Shown piece by piece: positions 4,183 to 59,577 of a stretch of 64,000 nt of DNA (its first letter is position 1; every line of letters starts with the position of its first letter). The notes below the pieces were generated by a model. The model saw nothing but the letters and a program-made list of their open reading frames with translations, was not told the origin of the DNA and searched no databases. Source of the stretch: a virus; IMG/VR virus record IMGVR_UViG_3300018080_000115, positions 12,695 through 76,694 of that record; one strand, given 5' to 3'. The translations under genes were made by a program, and so were the position numbers.

Positions 4183-4296
4183 TTGCTTCAACATCGCCTG
4201 AAGCATCCACTTCAACCTGAGCAATGACAAGTTCTTGATTTATTGACAAATCCAACATACCATAACTGCAACAATCAGGAGTCACACAACAATCCA

Positions 4297-5550
4297 ATGC
4301 CGCTGATTCTGTCACACAAGATTCGACTGAAGCCGAACAACAAGCAGGTTGCTCATCTGAAGCATGCTTGTGATGTGTCTCGATTCGTCTACAATTGGGC
4401 TTTGAATCAATGGCAACGGATGTTTGAGGCAGGCGAGAAGCCGTCTGCAAACAAGATCGACAAGCGTTTCAATCAAGTCAAGAAACAGTCCTATCCATGG
4501 GTTTTGGATGTCAGCAAATCTGTACCGCAGATTGCAATCAAGAACCTTGGGCAGGCATTCAAACGATTCTTCAATAAACAATCGAAATATCCACATTTCA
4601 AACGAAAGAATAAGTGTAAGAATTCGTTTGGATTGCAGAATAATCAGTTTGATATAAATAACAAAATCATTCGACTGCCCAAGCTGGGCAATGTTCGGAT
4701 ATACAATGCATTGCATTTCTCTGGAAAGATCATGTCTGCAACCATCAGTCAGACTGCTGACAGATGGTTTGTTTCGATAACTGTTGAGGTTGACTTTGAT
4801 CCATCAACAATCAGACACGAAAACCAAGGTTTGATCGGGATCGATGTCGGACTCAATAGTTTTGCCGTACTCAGTACGGGTCATTCGTTTGATGCGCCGA
4901 AACCATTGAAGCATGCTTTGAGACAGTTAAAAACACTGAACAAGAAGCTGTCTCGACAAATCAGATTATCCAACAACTGGAAAAAGACAAAACAGAGGAT
5001 TGCAAAGCTGTACTATCGCATCAGTTGTATTCGAAACGATTTCCTGCACAAGCTGACTTCGTTTCTGACACAACGATTCAACGGTATTGCAATCGAGAAT
5101 CTGAATATCAAAGGCATGCTTCGAAACCATCGATTGGCACGATCGATCAGTGATGTTGCTTGGTCTGAATTCAGAAGACAGTTGGAGTACAAAGCGGAAC
5201 TGTACGGTTCAGAAATCGCTGCAATCGATCGATGGTTTCCAAGCACGCAGACGTGTTCGAACTGTGGTGAGCGCAAACAAGGAAATGAGAAACTGAAGCT
5301 TGGTGATAAATTCTATCACTGCGATCATTGCGGTTTTGAAGCGAATCGCGACTTCAACGCTGCAATCAACATCAGAAATCAAGGGTTCAACCTTGAGTCG
5401 GCCGATGGCTTGTCGGCCAAGAAGCCTGTCGCCTCATTGGTCAATAGTTTCAATGCATCAGTGCTGAAGCCAAACCATGATTGGGCAGGAAGTTTTCATG
5501 GGTCTGCTGTAGATAGTGCTGCGACAATGCAGTCACAGCGGATTCAGTAA
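4297..5550 (+). CDS. tnpB: TnpB RNA-guided endonuclease (IS200/IS605 family, no TnpA nearby)
   Basis: N-terminal HKIRLKPN HTH; RuvC motifs GIDVG, IAIENL, RDFNAAINI; zinc ribbon CSNC..CDHC. Confidence 0.95.
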   Translation: MPLILSHKIRLKPNNKQVAHLKHACDVSRFVYNWALNQWQRMFEAGEKPSANKIDKRFNQVKKQSYPWVLDVSKSVPQIAIKNLGQAFKRFFNKQSKYPHFKRKNKCKNSFGLQNNQFDINNKIIRLPKLGNVRIYNALHFSGKIMSATISQTADRWFVSITVEVDFDPSTIRHENQGLIGIDVGLNSFAVLSTGHSFDAPKPLKHALRQLKTLNKKLSRQIRLSNNWKKTKQRIAKLYYRISCIRNDFLHKLTSFLTQRFNGIAIENLNIKGMLRNHRLARSISDVAWSEFRRQLEYKAELYGSEIAAIDRWFPSTQTCSNCGERKQGNEKLKLGDKFYHCDHCGFEANRDFNAAINIRNQGFNLESADGLSAKKPVASLVNSFNASVLKPNHDWAGSFHGSAVDSAATMQSQRIQ

Positions 5551-6960: not shown

Positions 6961-7019
6961 GTGACAATATTCGTCACTCATGTGACACAAATTGTCACCA
7001 GAATGACGTCAATTGTCAC
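6961..7019. promoter_or_regulatory. Enhancer-like array A1: three 17-bp palindromes at 21-bp period
   Basis: GTGACAATATTCGTCAC (6961), GTGACACAAATTGTCAC (6982), ATGACGTCAATTGTCAC (7003). Confidence 0.8.
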
Positions 7020-7223: not shown

Positions 7224-7517
7224 ATGTCGAAGAAAATCGCAGAGCCCAAGTGTTACGGACAGTACAGCGGACAGTACAACGACGGTCAGCCTTGGACGCA
7301 AGAATGGTACACGTCCAAGAGCCGCGATGCCAGCAAGCGCACGCGCATGCTGCGCAAGCTGGGTTTCGCCTGCCGCAGCGAGTCCATGGGCTACCAGACG
7401 GGCACGGGCTACAACATGACGCTCATCAGCATCGAAGCTGCTGCACACGAGCTGCCGCCTGTCGAGATGAAGAATCGCACGCAGGAACGCAACGAAATCG
7501 CCGCGTTCTTCAACTAG
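7224..7517 (+). CDS. Small protein, CYG/W-EWY/LPPV family member 1
   Basis: GAAAGGACAATCCA-ATG; motif shared with four other ORFs. Confidence 0.75.
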   Translation: MSKKIAEPKCYGQYSGQYNDGQPWTQEWYTSKSRDASKRTRMLRKLGFACRSESMGYQTGTGYNMTLISIEAAAHELPPVEMKNRTQERNEIAAFFN

Positions 7518-11948: not shown

Positions 11949-12543
11949 CAGCCGAAAGAGAGGCAGAAGATGAAGCGAGCGCCGCCCTAGATCCAAGCAA
12001 TACGAACGTGAGGATAATGCGGTAGAAGCAGAAGGCTCGGCAATCATGAACGAAAGCGATGTCATGAAAAAGTGCAAAAGTGAAAAACATGTACTAACGA
12101 TGTACAAGGTTGACACGCTGAACAGTGAGGAGCCAAGCCGACCTAGAGGCACGTGTTCAGGAAATAGGATGAGACCTCGGTTATTTCCAAACACACATCT
12201 TGAATGAACCATGTTGACGGTTCGCTATCACGAACACTTGCCTCAAAACAAAGCCCGGTCTGAAAGAACAGAAAAGAAAGAAGCGGAACGAGCGCGGCCG
12301 ACAAAACACCAGAAACGAAGCAAGGCCGCAGCCGCGAAAACCCTAACGTAAGAAGTCACAATGCAGCCAGAGAGGCAGAAGATGACAAGAGCACCGCCCT
12401 GAACAGAAAATGTATACATGAGCGAAATTGAATAGATAGAAGAAGTACAGGCATGGAAGACTCAGATGCAGATAAAAGATAGAAAGCAAATGACGAGTTT
12501 AAGAAGCAAGCCGAAAGACTAGGATGAGACTACGGTCATTTCC
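11949..12543 (+). repeat. Two diverged direct repeats (11949-12188, 12364-12543) in a gene-poor region
   Basis: Shared 5' GAGAGGCAGAAGATGA..GAGC.CCGCCCT and 3' TAGGATGAGAC..CGGT.ATTTCC. Confidence 0.7.
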
Positions 12544-20008: not shown

Positions 20009-20058
20009 CTTGGTCTGTCCTTTTTTGGTCTTGGTCGTCAACAGTTGGTCTTATAGGA

Positions 20059-20076
20059 TTGCAGTTTGTGTGCCAA
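20059..20076 (-). promoter_or_regulatory. sigma54-type promoter P2
   Basis: TTGGCACACAAACTGCA, GG-N10-GC. Confidence 0.75.
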
Positions 20077-20169
20077 ACATCACAGTTTGTCTGATAAATC
20101 TGTAAGTAGCTGAAAACTCTTATCTATTCCCGAACAGTGCTGTTGTTTAGGAGACGAAAGCCGGTTGAG

Positions 20170-20250
20170 TTGACGCTATTGGTCACTAGTTTGTGACAAT
20201 TTTCGTCGCTCGGTGACAATTTGTGTCACAAGAGTGACAATTTTCGTCAT
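20170..20250. promoter_or_regulatory. Enhancer-like array A2: 3-4 palindromes
   Basis: GTGACAATTTTCGTCGC (20193), GTGACAATTTGTGTCAC (20213), GTGACAATTTTCGTCAT (20234), weaker TTGACGCTATTGGTCAC (20170). Confidence 0.8.
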
Positions 20251-20307
20251 TCGATAGCGCCGACAGGCATTGGAAGCTGAACCTGAGCGTGCAGGCGGGC
20301 CGCGCCG

Positions 20308-25667: not shown

Positions 25668-25910
25668 GACCGATTCTATCTTCTTTTTGATATTGATGTT
25701 TATAATTCGAAATTGTTTTTCAGATTCATGACAATCACACTGATTTCATTTTCCGGCACACCTTCAATGTTACGAACCACTTCAAGCAACTCTTCGATTG
25801 CAATACACAACGCACTGCAATTACTGTCGTACTTGTTGAGTTTTTCTTGCATCAGCTCAATTTCATTCATCTCGTTCTTCCTTTCAAGTATTTTTAGTCT
25901 GTCCTTGCTG

Positions 25911-26153
25911 TTAGTGAGTGTCGAATCCAACGCTGATCGTCGGATGCAGCTTGACGGGCGGCAATTCGCAGACCGGCGCGTCGACATGAATGAAACTCAT
26001 GAGGCACTTCGGCGTGTACCTGAAGCTTGTGTGCATCATGTAGGCTTCGATGCCCACGCTCTTGAGCTGAAGAATCCGATCATTGAGCGCCCTGTCTTCG
26101 GCCCTATATGATTCGATCGTCCAGTTTTTCATATCCTGTTGTCCGTAACACAT
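25911..26153 (-). CDS. Small protein, CYG/W-EWY/LPPV family member 2
   Basis: GAAAGGA SD; MCYGQ..WTIESY..RILQLKSVG..LPPVKL. Confidence 0.75.
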   Translation of the reverse strand: MCYGQQDMKNWTIESYRAEDRALNDRILQLKSVGIEAYMMHTSFRYTPKCLMSFIHVDAPVCELPPVKLHPTISVGFDTH

Positions 26154-26194
26154 GGCTTTTCCTTTCAAATGCTTTCAGTGCGTCGTTGAGCGAT

Positions 26195-26473
26195 CTACTG
26201 CACTTCGACAGCCCACGGGCCGTTGCAGTTGGCGACAATGATGATTTTGTCCTTGTCTTCATGCTCGAACATCGCATAGTTCCCGCAATCGAAGAGACCC
26301 AAGAAGTCGCAGTCCATCTCCGACAATTCTTCCTTGACCGAAACTCCGTCGACTCGATCGTCATCATCACCGACCGGGAAGCCTTCGCCCGCATCATTGC
26401 GCTCATGAAACGCAATGCGGATATCGGTGTCATTGGTCCGGGACATCAACTGTTCGTACGAGATCTTCTTCAT
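26195..26473 (-). CDS. Acidic hypothetical protein, first gene after P3
   Basis: GAAAGGACAGACCA-ATG. Confidence 0.75.
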   Translation of the reverse strand: MKKISYEQLMSRTNDTDIRIAFHERNDAGEGFPVGDDDDRVDGVSVKEELSEMDCDFLGLFDCGNYAMFEHEDKDKIIIVANCNGPWAVEVQ

Positions 26474-26510
26474 TGGTCTGTCCTTTCAGTGCGTTGTTGC
26501 TCTGTAACAG

Positions 26511-26528
26511 TAGCATGAACCGTGCCAT
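26511..26528 (-). promoter_or_regulatory. sigma54-type promoter P3
   Basis: ATGGCACGGTTCATGCTA, GG-N10-GC. Confidence 0.8.
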
Positions 26529-26645
26529 TTGTCAAACATGTGTGACAAACATCTGCAACATATCGAAATCACTTATGCAAACAACACACAACGGCGTCCC
26601 GACACCGTTACGGCCGCACCCGCCTGTACCCTAAACAGCTCCGAA

Positions 26646-26704
26646 GCGACCATAATTGTCACTCATGTGACACAAATTGTCACAAAGATGACGAAAATTG
26701 TCAT
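26646..26704. promoter_or_regulatory. Enhancer-like array A3 shared by divergent P3 and P4
   Basis: GCGACCATAATTGTCAC (26646), GTGACACAAATTGTCAC (26667), ATGACGAAAATTGTCAT (26688); 21-bp period. Confidence 0.8.
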
Positions 26705-26819
26705 TGAGTTTAAGCACGGCAGGCATTTGAAGCGTTTCACAGCTTGAACCAAAGAAAAAAACATCAATAACATCACAAGTTTACGCTTTTATCGCCTATT
26801 TGTGCTGAATTTGTGACAG

Positions 26820-26836
26820 TTGGCACGGTCTATGCT
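26820..26836 (+). promoter_or_regulatory. sigma54-type promoter P4
   Basis: TTGGCACGGTCTATGCT, GG-N10-GC. Confidence 0.8.
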
Positions 26837-26879
26837 ACTATTACAGGACAACGACACGTAAGAAAGAAAGGACAGACCC

Positions 26880-27131
26880 ATGACGACGTGCTACGGAAAA
26901 TATGAACTGGCCAACGGCTGGACGTCAGAGTGGTATCGAACGGCTGATTGGCAGGACGTGAAGAAGCGGATTCGCCAGCTCAAGGAAGAAGGCATCCATG
27001 TGAGCGCCGCTCACATGGGCTTCAAGCACGCGACCCGCGCCCACATGACCCTGCTGCACATTCACGCACCCGTCAGCGCCGTTCTGCTGCCCGCTGAGAC
27101 CCTGCTCGTCTGCCCGGATGGACCCTATTGA
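26880..27131 (+). CDS. Small protein, CYG/W-EWY/LPPV family member 3
   Basis: GAAAGGACAGACCC-ATG; TCYGKY..WTSEWY..KRIRQLKEEG. Confidence 0.75.
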   Translation: MTTCYGKYELANGWTSEWYRTADWQDVKKRIRQLKEEGIHVSAAHMGFKHATRAHMTLLHIHAPVSAVLLPAETLLVCPDGPY

Positions 27132-27158
27132 TCGACGACGCTCTGAAAGGACCGACCC

Positions 27159-27389
27159 ATGACCATCATCTGCAAAAGCCAAAAATGCCAATCCGGCCTC
27201 ATCGGCATCAATCCGCGCATCGTGGAACAGTATGACAATGTCTGTATGGCTCGTGCGCGTATTCGTCAGCTCCTGAATCACGATGTTCACGTGCACGGCT
27301 ACTGCTTCATGAGCAAGTGGGATGACGGAAGCGCATCACTCCTCATCTACCATCCGAAGCACATGCTGCCGCCCGTCCAGATCGGATGA
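27159..27389 (+). CDS. Small protein, LPPV family member 4 (diverged)
   Basis: GAAAGGACCGACCC-ATG; ARIRQL..LPPVQI. Confidence 0.65.
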   Translation: MTIICKSQKCQSGLIGINPRIVEQYDNVCMARARIRQLLNHDVHVHGYCFMSKWDDGSASLLIYHPKHMLPPVQIG

Positions 27390-27446
27390 CCGCTCTCTGA
27401 CAATCGAATACGCAAGCTGCAACACACTTGTTCAAGGAGATTGATC

Positions 27447-27731
27447 ATGGCACGTTCCTACCGCAAGCCCTCCTACTTCGTCTGCAACGGTGCCGACCCC
27501 GCGACCGGCAAGCGCGTCACCAGCCGCTACATCCGCCATCGCGTCAAGCAGGAGCTGCGCAACGACGGCGCGGACTTCGACTTTGTCGACATCCGCGACA
27601 AGAATCGCGGCAACAGCGGTTCCAAGAACATAAATGACTGCTGGGACTACTTCGGCGACGGCAAGGCCATCCCTGAACGTGTCCGCATCGAACACGACGG
27701 CAAGACCGTCAGCAAGCTGTCCCGCAAGTAG
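27447..27731 (+). CDS. Hypothetical phage protein (MARSYRKP..)
   Basis: AAGGAG SD; followed by a terminator. Confidence 0.7.
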   Translation: MARSYRKPSYFVCNGADPATGKRVTSRYIRHRVKQELRNDGADFDFVDIRDKNRGNSGSKNINDCWDYFGDGKAIPERVRIEHDGKTVSKLSRK

Positions 27732-27746
27732 CAGCAGCACGATTCA

Positions 27747-27776
27747 AGGCAGGCTCTTAAGCCTGCCTGTTTTTTT
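27747..27776 (+). terminator. Intrinsic terminator
   Basis: AGGCAGGCT-CTTA-AGCCTGCCT followed by T7. Confidence 0.85.
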
Positions 27777-27808
27777 GTTTGCAGTCCGACTTCTGAAAGG
27801 ACCGAACC

Positions 27809-28090
27809 ATGATGACCGATCCCTTGAACCCCGAAACCCCTCGAAGCGACGCCGCCGCGCTGCCCGCATGCCTTCGTCAAGAACCCAGAGATGTCGGCAC
27901 GCTCACGCTGGAATGGTACAAGGACCGCAAGGAAGTCCTGAAGCGCATCGCTCAGATCAAGGCTGCCGGTTTCGACACCAACATGCGCTGCTTCTTCGAT
28001 GAAGTGGATGACCAAGGCACCATCAAGATGGAACTGTTCTTCCCTTGCTTCTTGCTTCCTCCGGTTGAAATCGTCGGACAACCATCATGA
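27809..28090 (+). CDS. Small protein, LPPV family member 5
   Basis: GAAAGGACCGAACC-ATG; LEWY..KRIAQIKAAG..LLPPVEI. Confidence 0.7.
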   Translation: MMTDPLNPETPRSDAAALPACLRQEPRDVGTLTLEWYKDRKEVLKRIAQIKAAGFDTNMRCFFDEVDDQGTIKMELFFPCFLLPPVEIVGQPS

Positions 28091-58269: not shown

Positions 58270-59577
58270 ATGAAAATCCACAGATCCCACAAGATTGAAT
58301 TGAAGCCAAACAATGTGCAGTGCGGCTATTTCAGGCGTGCTTGCGGCATTGCGAGGTTTGTCTTCAATTGGGGCCTTGCGGAATGGAAACAGCAGTACGA
58401 AGCAGATGAGAAGCCAAGCAAATTCAAGCTGAAAAAAGAATTCAATGCGATCAAGCACGATGCGTTTCCATTTGTGACTGAAGTGACAAAGTGCGCTGCT
58501 GAGTGCGCTTTCGATCGTCTTGGAACAGCATTCAAGAACTTCTTTCGCAACATCAAAGCAGGAAACAAGCCTGGATATCCTCAGTTCAAGCGCAAAGGAA
58601 AGTGTAAGGATTCATTTTATCTAGCTAATAATCAATTTAGTATAAATAGAAACAAGATTAGAATTCCGTTGTTGGGTTGGGTTCGAATGAGAGAGTGTCT
58701 GCGTTACAGCGGCAAGATTCTATCCGCAACCATTAGTCGAACCGCTGAGAAATGGTTCGTTTCCATAAGCGTTGAGATTGACATTGATGAACCAGCCAAT
58801 CGTGAAACCCAAGCGTTGGTCGGTATTGATGTTGGACTCAACAGTTTCGCAATCCTGAGCACTGGCGAATCATTCACTGCACCGAAGCCATTGAAACACG
58901 CTCTGAAAAAGTTGAGACAGTTGAACAAAAAGCTGTCTCGACAGATCAAAGGATCGAACAACAGAGAGAAGACCAAGCAAAAGCTTGCAAAGCTGTACTA
59001 TCACATCAGTTGTGTTCGAAACGATTTCACGCACAAGCTGAGCACTGTTTTGCTGAAGTGCTTCAGCGGAATTGCAATCGAGGATCTGAACATCAAAGGG
59101 ATGATCCGCAACAGAAATTTGTCGAAATCGATCAGTGATGTTGCTTGGTCTGAATTCAGACGTCAACTCGAATATAAAGCAGAAGCGTTCGGTTCGAAAG
59201 TGATTGCAATCAATCAATGGTTTCCGAGTACGCAGCAGTGTTCACAGTGCTGTTCGCTCAAGGATGGCGACGAAAAATTGAAGCTTGGCAATGAAACCTA
59301 TCGTTGTGATCATTGCGGTTCAGTGATGGATCGTGACTTGAATGCAGCGATCAACATTCGAAACGAAGGATTCAACCTCAGTCCGTATTCTTTCGCCGCT
59401 GGCTTGGCGGTTTCATTGGAATCATCATCTCAGCTAAACGATTCCAGTGATGAGCCTGTCGTCTTGGTTGTCACTGCCAAGGATGTTCATCCTTCGGATA
59501 CATCCTTGATCAAACACCATTGGGCAGGAAGTTTTCATGAACCAAATGATACTATGATGGTTCAATCGATTCAGTAA
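58270..59577 (+). CDS. tnpB: TnpB RNA-guided endonuclease, copy 2
   Basis: HKIELKPN; GIDVG, IAIEDL, RDLNAAINI; CSQC..CDHC. Confidence 0.95.
   Translation: MKIHRSHKIELKPNNVQCGYFRRACGIARFVFNWGLAEWKQQYEADEKPSKFKLKKEFNAIKHDAFPFVTEVTKCAAECAFDRLGTAFKNFFRNIKAGNKPGYPQFKRKGKCKDSFYLANNQFSINRNKIRIPLLGWVRMRECLRYSGKILSATISRTAEKWFVSISVEIDIDEPANRETQALVGIDVGLNSFAILSTGESFTAPKPLKHALKKLRQLNKKLSRQIKGSNNREKTKQKLAKLYYHISCVRNDFTHKLSTVLLKCFSGIAIEDLNIKGMIRNRNLSKSISDVAWSEFRRQLEYKAEAFGSKVIAINQWFPSTQQCSQCCSLKDGDEKLKLGNETYRCDHCGSVMDRDLNAAINIRNEGFNLSPYSFAAGLAVSLESSSQLNDSSDEPVVLVVTAKDVHPSDTSLIKHHWAGSFHEPNDTMMVQSIQ

Follow-up and report, generated by a model that had tools for sequence, protein, structure and literature searches.

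Diverged copies of an apparently virus-restricted small-protein domain behind sigma54-type promoters in an uncultivated phage

Introduction

Lineage-specific expansion of small early or accessory genes is a general phenomenon in large phages. Phages and conjugative elements also encode polyvalent proteins, multidomain products that serve conflicts with the host; the large polyvalent protein-associated domains (LPDs) defined from them, of which LPD29 is one, also occur as solo proteins and have been proposed to be facilitators of early invasion, and those whose conserved residues are mostly polar are flagged as potentially enzymatic (Iyer et al. 2017, PMC5512222). Here we describe five open reading frames (ORFs) for small proteins, m1 to m5, in a 64,000-nucleotide stretch of phage DNA (the window; C1:12695-76694 of the virus record IMGVR_UViG_3300018080_000115), and compare them with both kinds of system. 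The record is a single contig of 138,362 bp and is about 70% complete. Four of the ORFs, and probably the fifth, are diverged copies of a domain that other viruses carry once and in conserved form, and all five lie shortly downstream of sigma54-type promoter sequences. Coordinates refer to the window unless the genome is named.

Results

Five related ORFs

The five ORFs are m1 (7224-7517, plus strand, 97 amino acids (aa)), m2 (25911-26153, minus strand, 80 aa), m3 (26880-27131, plus strand, 83 aa), m4 (27159-27389, plus strand, 76 aa) and m5 (27809-28090, plus strand, 93 aa). A preliminary description of this DNA had grouped them as a five-member family of proteins of 76-97 aa, and all five were confirmed, with every reading frame intact. 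When the genome was searched as 1,844 six-frame segments, m1, m2 and m3 matched one another with phmmer E-values of 1e-5 to 1e-10, and m5 was recovered by a leave-one-out hidden Markov model (HMM) with an E-value of 1.3e-6. A further HMM was assembled from 128 outside relatives with zero sequences from this genome; its top four genome matches are m1 (4e-21), m3 (7e-12), m2 (8.5e-7) and m5 (2.6e-3), and a smaller HMM (A3) matches m5 with an E-value of 2.6e-5.

The marginal case is m4. Its leave-one-out HMM E-value is 1.2, hhalign of m4 against outside relatives alone gives a score of 15.1, which is noise, and a single-sequence AlphaFold2 (AF2) model is uninformative, with a predicted local distance difference test score (pLDDT) of 52.9. 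Nonetheless, m4 and m5 are reciprocal best phmmer matches (E-values 0.006-0.01), and hhalign of m4 against the family together with the paralogues gives 24.2 (P 3.8e-4), a score reached by 0 of 40 shuffles (shuffle maximum 16.9). Because it retains C, E-x-Y, R-I-R-Q-L and LPPV in order, is family-sized and lies between m3 and m5, m4 is treated as a probable member. By sequence comparison, four of the five copies are related beyond chance, with m4 a probable member only. No sixth copy is present in the 138,362-bp genome; the small ORFs nearby all fall outside the family and are without paralogues.

A wider family in uncultivated viruses

The preliminary description had proposed a profile search beyond this genome. 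A search of 1.84 billion representative proteins returned about 25 distant relatives, and a second search seeded with these returned 239 clusters, so that the family comprises, as a lower bound, at least 239 metagenomic protein clusters. All are unnamed or labelled "hypothetical", each lacks a Pfam domain, and almost every one is a metagenomic singleton 75-95 aa long. The possibility that the family is private to this phage is rejected, since the outside clusters are numerous and well conserved. The domain spans about 75 aa and reads CYGQ-x5-W-x-QEWYETASRDAG-x-RAR-x-LRK-x-GY-x-V-x-VS-x-MG-x-QVT-x-VG-x-VKMTLV-x-I-x(8-10)-LP-x-V-x-x-ER in consensus, with positions conserved at 90% or more in C-Y, Q-E-x-Y-E, A..R...LR..G, G-x-Q-x-T..G, T and P; the canonical family is basic, with a median isoelectric point (pI) of 9.45. 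Profile comparisons of the five paralogues and 20 relatives with Pfam-A, PHROGs v4, NCBIfam 20 and PDB-sequence profiles gave no significant match (nothing better than an E-value of 0.005 and no match common to more than two members), and the ESM Atlas gave scores of at most 0.76 and no named cluster. The family is undescribed; we name its domain CYGQ-QEWYE-LPPV (the CYGQ domain below).

The domain is found in five other IMG/VR records (GC content 55-71%), one of them a complete 58-kb genome with terminal repeats and another 86% complete, and each of the five carries exactly one copy. It is also present in several metagenome contigs from the Joint Genome Institute (GC content 44-66%), and as a solo gene in the viral contigs L001, L002, L004 and L016. 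Two pattern scans of one genome per species for 185,579 prokaryote species (GTDB), one of them using the highly conserved string YETASRDA, gave 0 relatives; tblastn of m1 and P0008 against 50,697 GenBank phage records gave 0 matches, and megablast of 12 kb of the window against the same records gave nothing. From the negative results in prokaryote genomes and GenBank phages, the family would seem to be confined to uncultivated viruses that are probably non-integrating. When viral contigs were scanned with m3, no close relative of the diverged copies came up.

The surroundings of the relatives vary. Across 14 loci no neighbouring gene is conserved: the family gene accompanies a sliding clamp and an Rv2179c-like exonuclease in L001, radical-SAM and PALP genes near a terminase in L004, and, in L016, small ORFs close to a UvrD helicase and a PD-(D/E)XK nuclease. 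Portal and MuF genes were examined in the records of three relatives, and no conserved linkage of head or portal genes to the family gene is seen; in G005 a MuF-like gene lies 30 kb away.

Divergence of the copies in this genome

The preliminary description had called the family expanded and diverged, and both terms hold up, with five copies in this genome as against single copies elsewhere. Outside members from very different phages share 41-63% identity (median 50%), and of 26 columns that are each at least 80% conserved among outside members they keep a median of 24; the five copies of the window share only 21-37% identity with one another and keep 9-19. The canonical member is m1, with 19 of the 26 positions, followed by m3 (14), m2 and m4 (10 each) and m5 (9), so that m2-m5 each lack 12-17. 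Charge varies as well, from a pI of 9.2 in m1 through near neutrality in m2 to 4.7 in the acidic m5. In a quick maximum-likelihood tree, m1 falls within the main family polytomy and m3, m2, m5 and m4 lie outside it on progressively longer branches, with a Shimodaira-Hasegawa-like approximate likelihood ratio test (SH-aLRT) value of 98 for the split. The tree may be compatible with a single origin of all five copies. The simplest reading of the contrast as a whole is that the gene was duplicated in this phage lineage and that four of the copies then evolved at a strongly accelerated rate.

Fusions to larger proteins

Several multidomain proteins also contain the domain internally, as one module among others (P0138, P0140, P0143, P0018, P0141, P0142 and P0139), and so does a 546-aa product of a complete phage genome (L003:7338-8978). 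The 1185-aa protein P0138 contains LPD29 (PF18847, E-value 8e-21) at residues 261-355 and the CYGQ domain at 483-566. The remaining fusion partners carry no annotation, and nothing in this genome corresponds to the other modules of the fused proteins. The CYGQ domain itself matches no Pfam LPD model, from a described set of LPD1-LPD40, either in solo members or in residues 483-566 of P0138.

Three further features of these proteins were noted. The Asn-Pro dipeptide is six to eight times more frequent than expected in P0138 (14 observed, 2.4 expected), P0140, P0143, P0018, P0142 and the L003 protein, and it sits at module borders, including both flanks of the CYGQ domain; these positions may be linkers or polyprotein processing sites. 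The CYG motif has a nearly invariant Cys, kept in solo forms and in all five copies of the window, but the fused proteins P0140, P0018 and P0143 either have another residue there (TAYGQ, TAYGS) or lack it. P0024, P0051 and P0139 have a second unannotated domain of about 100 aa at the N-terminal side, with the motif ..VYRA..D....GYR.G.W.C....FER..

Predicted fold

Structure prediction and a fold search had also been proposed in the preliminary description. An AF2 model of m1 from a 25-sequence alignment is confident (pLDDT 87.5, predicted template modelling score 0.74) and has the order beta-beta-alpha-beta-beta, with predicted strands at residues 9-17 and 23-30, a helix at 35-45 (basic and Arg/Lys-rich in the canonical family), strands at 50-58 and 63-70, and a short LPPV strand. 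The fold search returned two-layer alpha/beta sandwiches, namely SUI1/eIF1, the ArgR C-terminal domain and the RNA polymerase alpha N-terminal domain, with scores at what the tool itself gives as background.

A sigma54-type promoter cassette

Sigma54-type sites of one class (class B; TGGCAY-N5-ATGCTACTRTTACA, in extended form TGGCA(C/T)-N5-ATGCTACT(G/A)TTACA) occur exactly three times in the genome, at window 7159 (plus), 26527 (minus) and 26821 (plus). These are P1 (7159-7183, plus strand; TGGCAT-N5-ATGCTACTGTTACA), P3 (26503-26527, minus strand; TGGCAC-N5-ATGCTACTGTTACA) and P4 (26821-26845, plus strand; TGGCAC-N5-ATGCTACTATTACA). All three read TGGCA(C/T)-N5-ATGCT, one deviation from the sigma54 consensus TGGCAC-N5-TTGCW, and in each the -24 GG and -12 GC are exactly 10 nt apart. 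Palindromes of the form RTGAC-N7-GTCAY, with a 21-bp period, lie 100-150 bp upstream of the class-B sites, as expected of enhancer sites: one array, at 6961-7019, is about 140 bp upstream of P1, and another, at 26646-26704, is common to the divergent P3 and P4 and consists of strict palindromes at 26667 and 26688 and an imperfect copy just upstream. To our knowledge, sigma54-type promoters have rarely been reported in phages, and a literature search for phage promoters that depend on sigma54 brought up no such report.

All five family genes lie at most 1.3 kb downstream of a class-B promoter, in agreement with their earlier placement in or just after the P1, P3 and P4 units: m1 is the first gene after P1, m2 the second after P3, m3 and m4 the first and second after P4, and m5 follows the end of the P4 unit. 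The promoter-leader DNA of P1, P3 and P4 is about 80% identical and unique to the three sites. Because this DNA is far more conserved than the proteins it would drive, at 21-37% identity, the association most likely arose by spread of a promoter-leader cassette that was kept under selection.

The link does not extend to the family at large. Nine independent loci of relatives have neither a -24/-12 site nor palindromes upstream, and a sigma54 link as a family property is therefore rejected; it is a feature of this phage. Sigma54-type sites of a second class (class A; TGGCACACAAACTGCAA(C/T)CCTATAA) occur twice, each with its own GTGAC-N7-GTCAC array, in window 20040-20260 (minus strand, site at about 20077) and, outside the window, at genome 12100-12330 (site at 12264; equivalent to window -594 to -365). 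They precede amidoligase paralogues 3 and 1 and not family members. Counting the two classes together, the phage therefore has five -24/-12 sites, with cargo differing by class.

The preliminary description had further held that the family is found under sigma54-type promoters only. All copies do lie downstream of one promoter class, and no class-B promoter occurs elsewhere in the genome, but sigma70-like hexamers with an extended -10 TG overlap P3 (TTGACA-17-TACTGT; region 26500-26546, minus strand) and P4 (GTGACA-17-TACTAT; region 26813-26841, plus strand). Because of this overlap exclusive sigma54 control is unproven, and dual or alternative promoter recognition at P3 and P4 is possible on the basis of these motifs.

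Other features of the locus

The first gene after P3 is a non-family ORF, orf92 (26195-26473, minus strand), for a protein of 92 aa with a pI of 4.2 and a charge of about -13; it has no Pfam match and no paralogue in the genome, and its very acidic composition recalls DNA-mimic proteins. The third gene of the P4 unit, orf94 (27447-27731, plus strand), codes for a basic non-family protein (pI 9.8) with no Pfam match. The P4 unit, with intergenic gaps of 27 and 57 nt, ends upstream of m5 at a predicted intrinsic terminator between orf94 and m5 (27747-27778, plus strand), made up of a 9-bp stem (27747-27768) with six GC pairs and a T run; no promoter of its own is visible for m5.

The general ribosome-binding site (RBS) of the phage, AAGGA(C/A)-N5-7-ATG, occurs 40 times in the genome, 33 of them ahead of ORFs of at least 50 aa, and precedes each of m1-m5 (as GAAAGGA-N6-ATG at m2). 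A longer initiation block, GGAC(A/C)GA(A/C)C-N0-3-ATG, is more specific than a plain Shine-Dalgarno site: all 12 of its genome sites lie ahead of ORFs of at least 64 aa, examples being at window 1710, 6014, 10372, 20008, 26473, 26880, 27159, 27809, 45779, 48967 and 60474. A listed 95-aa ORF (25700-25987, minus strand) shares 77 nt with the end of m2; if translation began instead at its internal ATG (25870, after GAAAGGAA-N8), the resulting 56-aa ORF would be a better match to the operon spacing. The window also contains two copies of a TnpB/IS605-OrfB-like transposase gene, at 4243-5550 and 58270-59577, both on the plus strand (phrog_506, E-values 1e-113 to 1e-119).

Discussion

Host-directed binding modules

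The reading that we favour, tentatively and with somewhat less than even confidence, is that the five proteins are host-directed binding modules, one canonical and four retargeted, that are co-expressed from the sigma54-type cassette. The five ORFs would be translated paralogues of a virus-restricted alpha/beta domain of about 75 residues, consisting of two beta strands, a basic helix, two further strands and a short C-terminal LP.V strand, which elsewhere is a conserved, basic, single-copy small protein and occasionally an internal module of polyvalent-type proteins. Here m1 would have stayed canonical, and m3, m2, m5 and m4, in this order of divergence, would have evolved very fast, with their charge altered. 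The conserved promoter-leader cassette, with its -24/-12 elements of sigma54 type and upstream palindromes, lies ahead of every copy, so that the copies would be induced jointly. The canonical domain would bind a conserved host or nucleic-acid target early in infection, as is envisaged for solo polyvalent-protein modules, and the diverged copies would be retargeted binding modules acting as host-directed takeover or conflict effectors. The LPD29 fusion, the occurrence as an internal module, and the divergence and charge shift of the paralogues give modest, indirect support to a host-directed role. An anti-defence role specifically, which the preliminary description had suggested, would be a conjecture beyond this, and none of the PHROG or Pfam matches points to it.

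Several observations weigh against this reading. Long branches may distort the family tree, the membership of m4 is statistically insecure, and m2-m5 could have lost conserved positions through relaxed constraint and not through retargeting. Just one fused protein has a recognised polyvalent-protein domain, no functional homologue was found, and the strongly conserved polar residues of the canonical family would also suit a protein that acts within the phage's own cycle, whether as an enzyme or by binding nucleic acid. On the regulatory side, no enhancer-binding protein (PF00158) is found in the approximately 70%-complete record; because of this and the sigma70-like hexamers at P3 and P4, the regulatory part of the reading is unproven.

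A bolder form goes further, in that the domain would be a new and widespread phage conflict module with a conserved host target and the phage would have been caught in the act of diversifying it, with one copy kept canonical, four copies rapidly retargeted and the resulting effector set gated by a host sigma54/enhancer circuit. We consider this improbable as a whole. The sigma54-type coupling suggests expression gated by a host enhancer-binding protein; if so, the effector set would be deployed only under the host signalling state that activates that protein, as a conditional counter-defence or takeover programme.

Alternative explanations

The basic character of the canonical family (median pI 9.45) and its Arg/Lys-rich helix would also suit small nucleic-acid-binding regulators of phage genes, for example auto-regulators or modulators of the sigma54-type cassettes that act on DNA, mRNA leaders or RNA polymerase. 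The promoter-proximal positions of m1 and m3 in their own units, and the tendency of the relatives toward small-gene clusters near replication genes, point the same way. The nine loci of relatives, however, have neither sigma54-type promoters nor palindromes, so that the core function of the family is not tied to the promoter; moreover, m5 is acidic and m2 near neutral, the fold matches are at background level, and the domain is found inside polyvalent-type proteins. We regard such a regulatory role as unlikely, though it deserves to be kept in mind.

That 16-17 of the 26 positions nearly always kept outside are missing from m2, m4 and m5, that m4 is barely recognisable, and that m5 lies behind a terminator and is without its own promoter could mean that only m1, and perhaps m3, is functional, the other three being duplicates in decay, with no selected function of their own, that came along when the promoter cassette was duplicated. 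We think this quite improbable in view of the state of the genes: all five frames are intact and of family-typical length, each copy has kept the phage RBS at the correct spacing, and the core motifs C, E-x-Y, R..QL and LPPV are retained in order, whereas dead ORFs rarely persist in phage genomes at 21-37% identity free of stops or frameshifts.

Least probable of all is a small enzyme or toxin-like module (such as a metal-independent RNase or a modifying enzyme) with the paralogues as inactive or altered derivatives, for although the domain is small and basic and polar or small residues make up most of its positions of at least 90% conservation, the pattern by which LPDs are flagged as potentially enzymatic (PMC5512222), it has no catalytic-family match by sequence or fold and no conserved immunity- or antitoxin-like neighbour, its conserved Cys is changed to Ala in several fused forms, and four of the five copies in the window lack most of the conserved residues.

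The phage offers a natural experiment, in which a form that is single-copy and conserved elsewhere can be set against the fast-diverging five found here. Should the target of the domain be a host component, comparison of the paralogues would indicate which residues determine specificity. The domain itself defines a previously unannotated family; its fold is predicted with confidence, its pattern of conservation is clear, and it merits a Pfam entry and a screen for binding partners.

Comparison with known systems

The CYGQ domain resembles the LPDs (PMC5512222) in being small, uncharacterised, restricted to mobile elements and found both solo and inside multidomain proteins, and differs from them in being mostly solo. 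At present it stands as a well-delimited domain, not as a demonstrated new mechanism.

The set of genes in this phage recalls the families of small early or accessory genes that have expanded in particular lineages of large phages: here, too, several diverged copies lie in a non-structural region, some of them in tandem, under one promoter type. The set differs from these in that the family also has a well-conserved single-copy form in many unrelated phages, so that the contrast with the fast-evolving copies is measurable, and in that the promoter is of the sigma54 type. The domain family is undescribed, whereas it is a phenomenon of a known kind that a large phage should have multiplied one of its small accessory genes; the unusual aspects here are the contrast with the conserved single-copy form and the sigma54-type promoter cassette.

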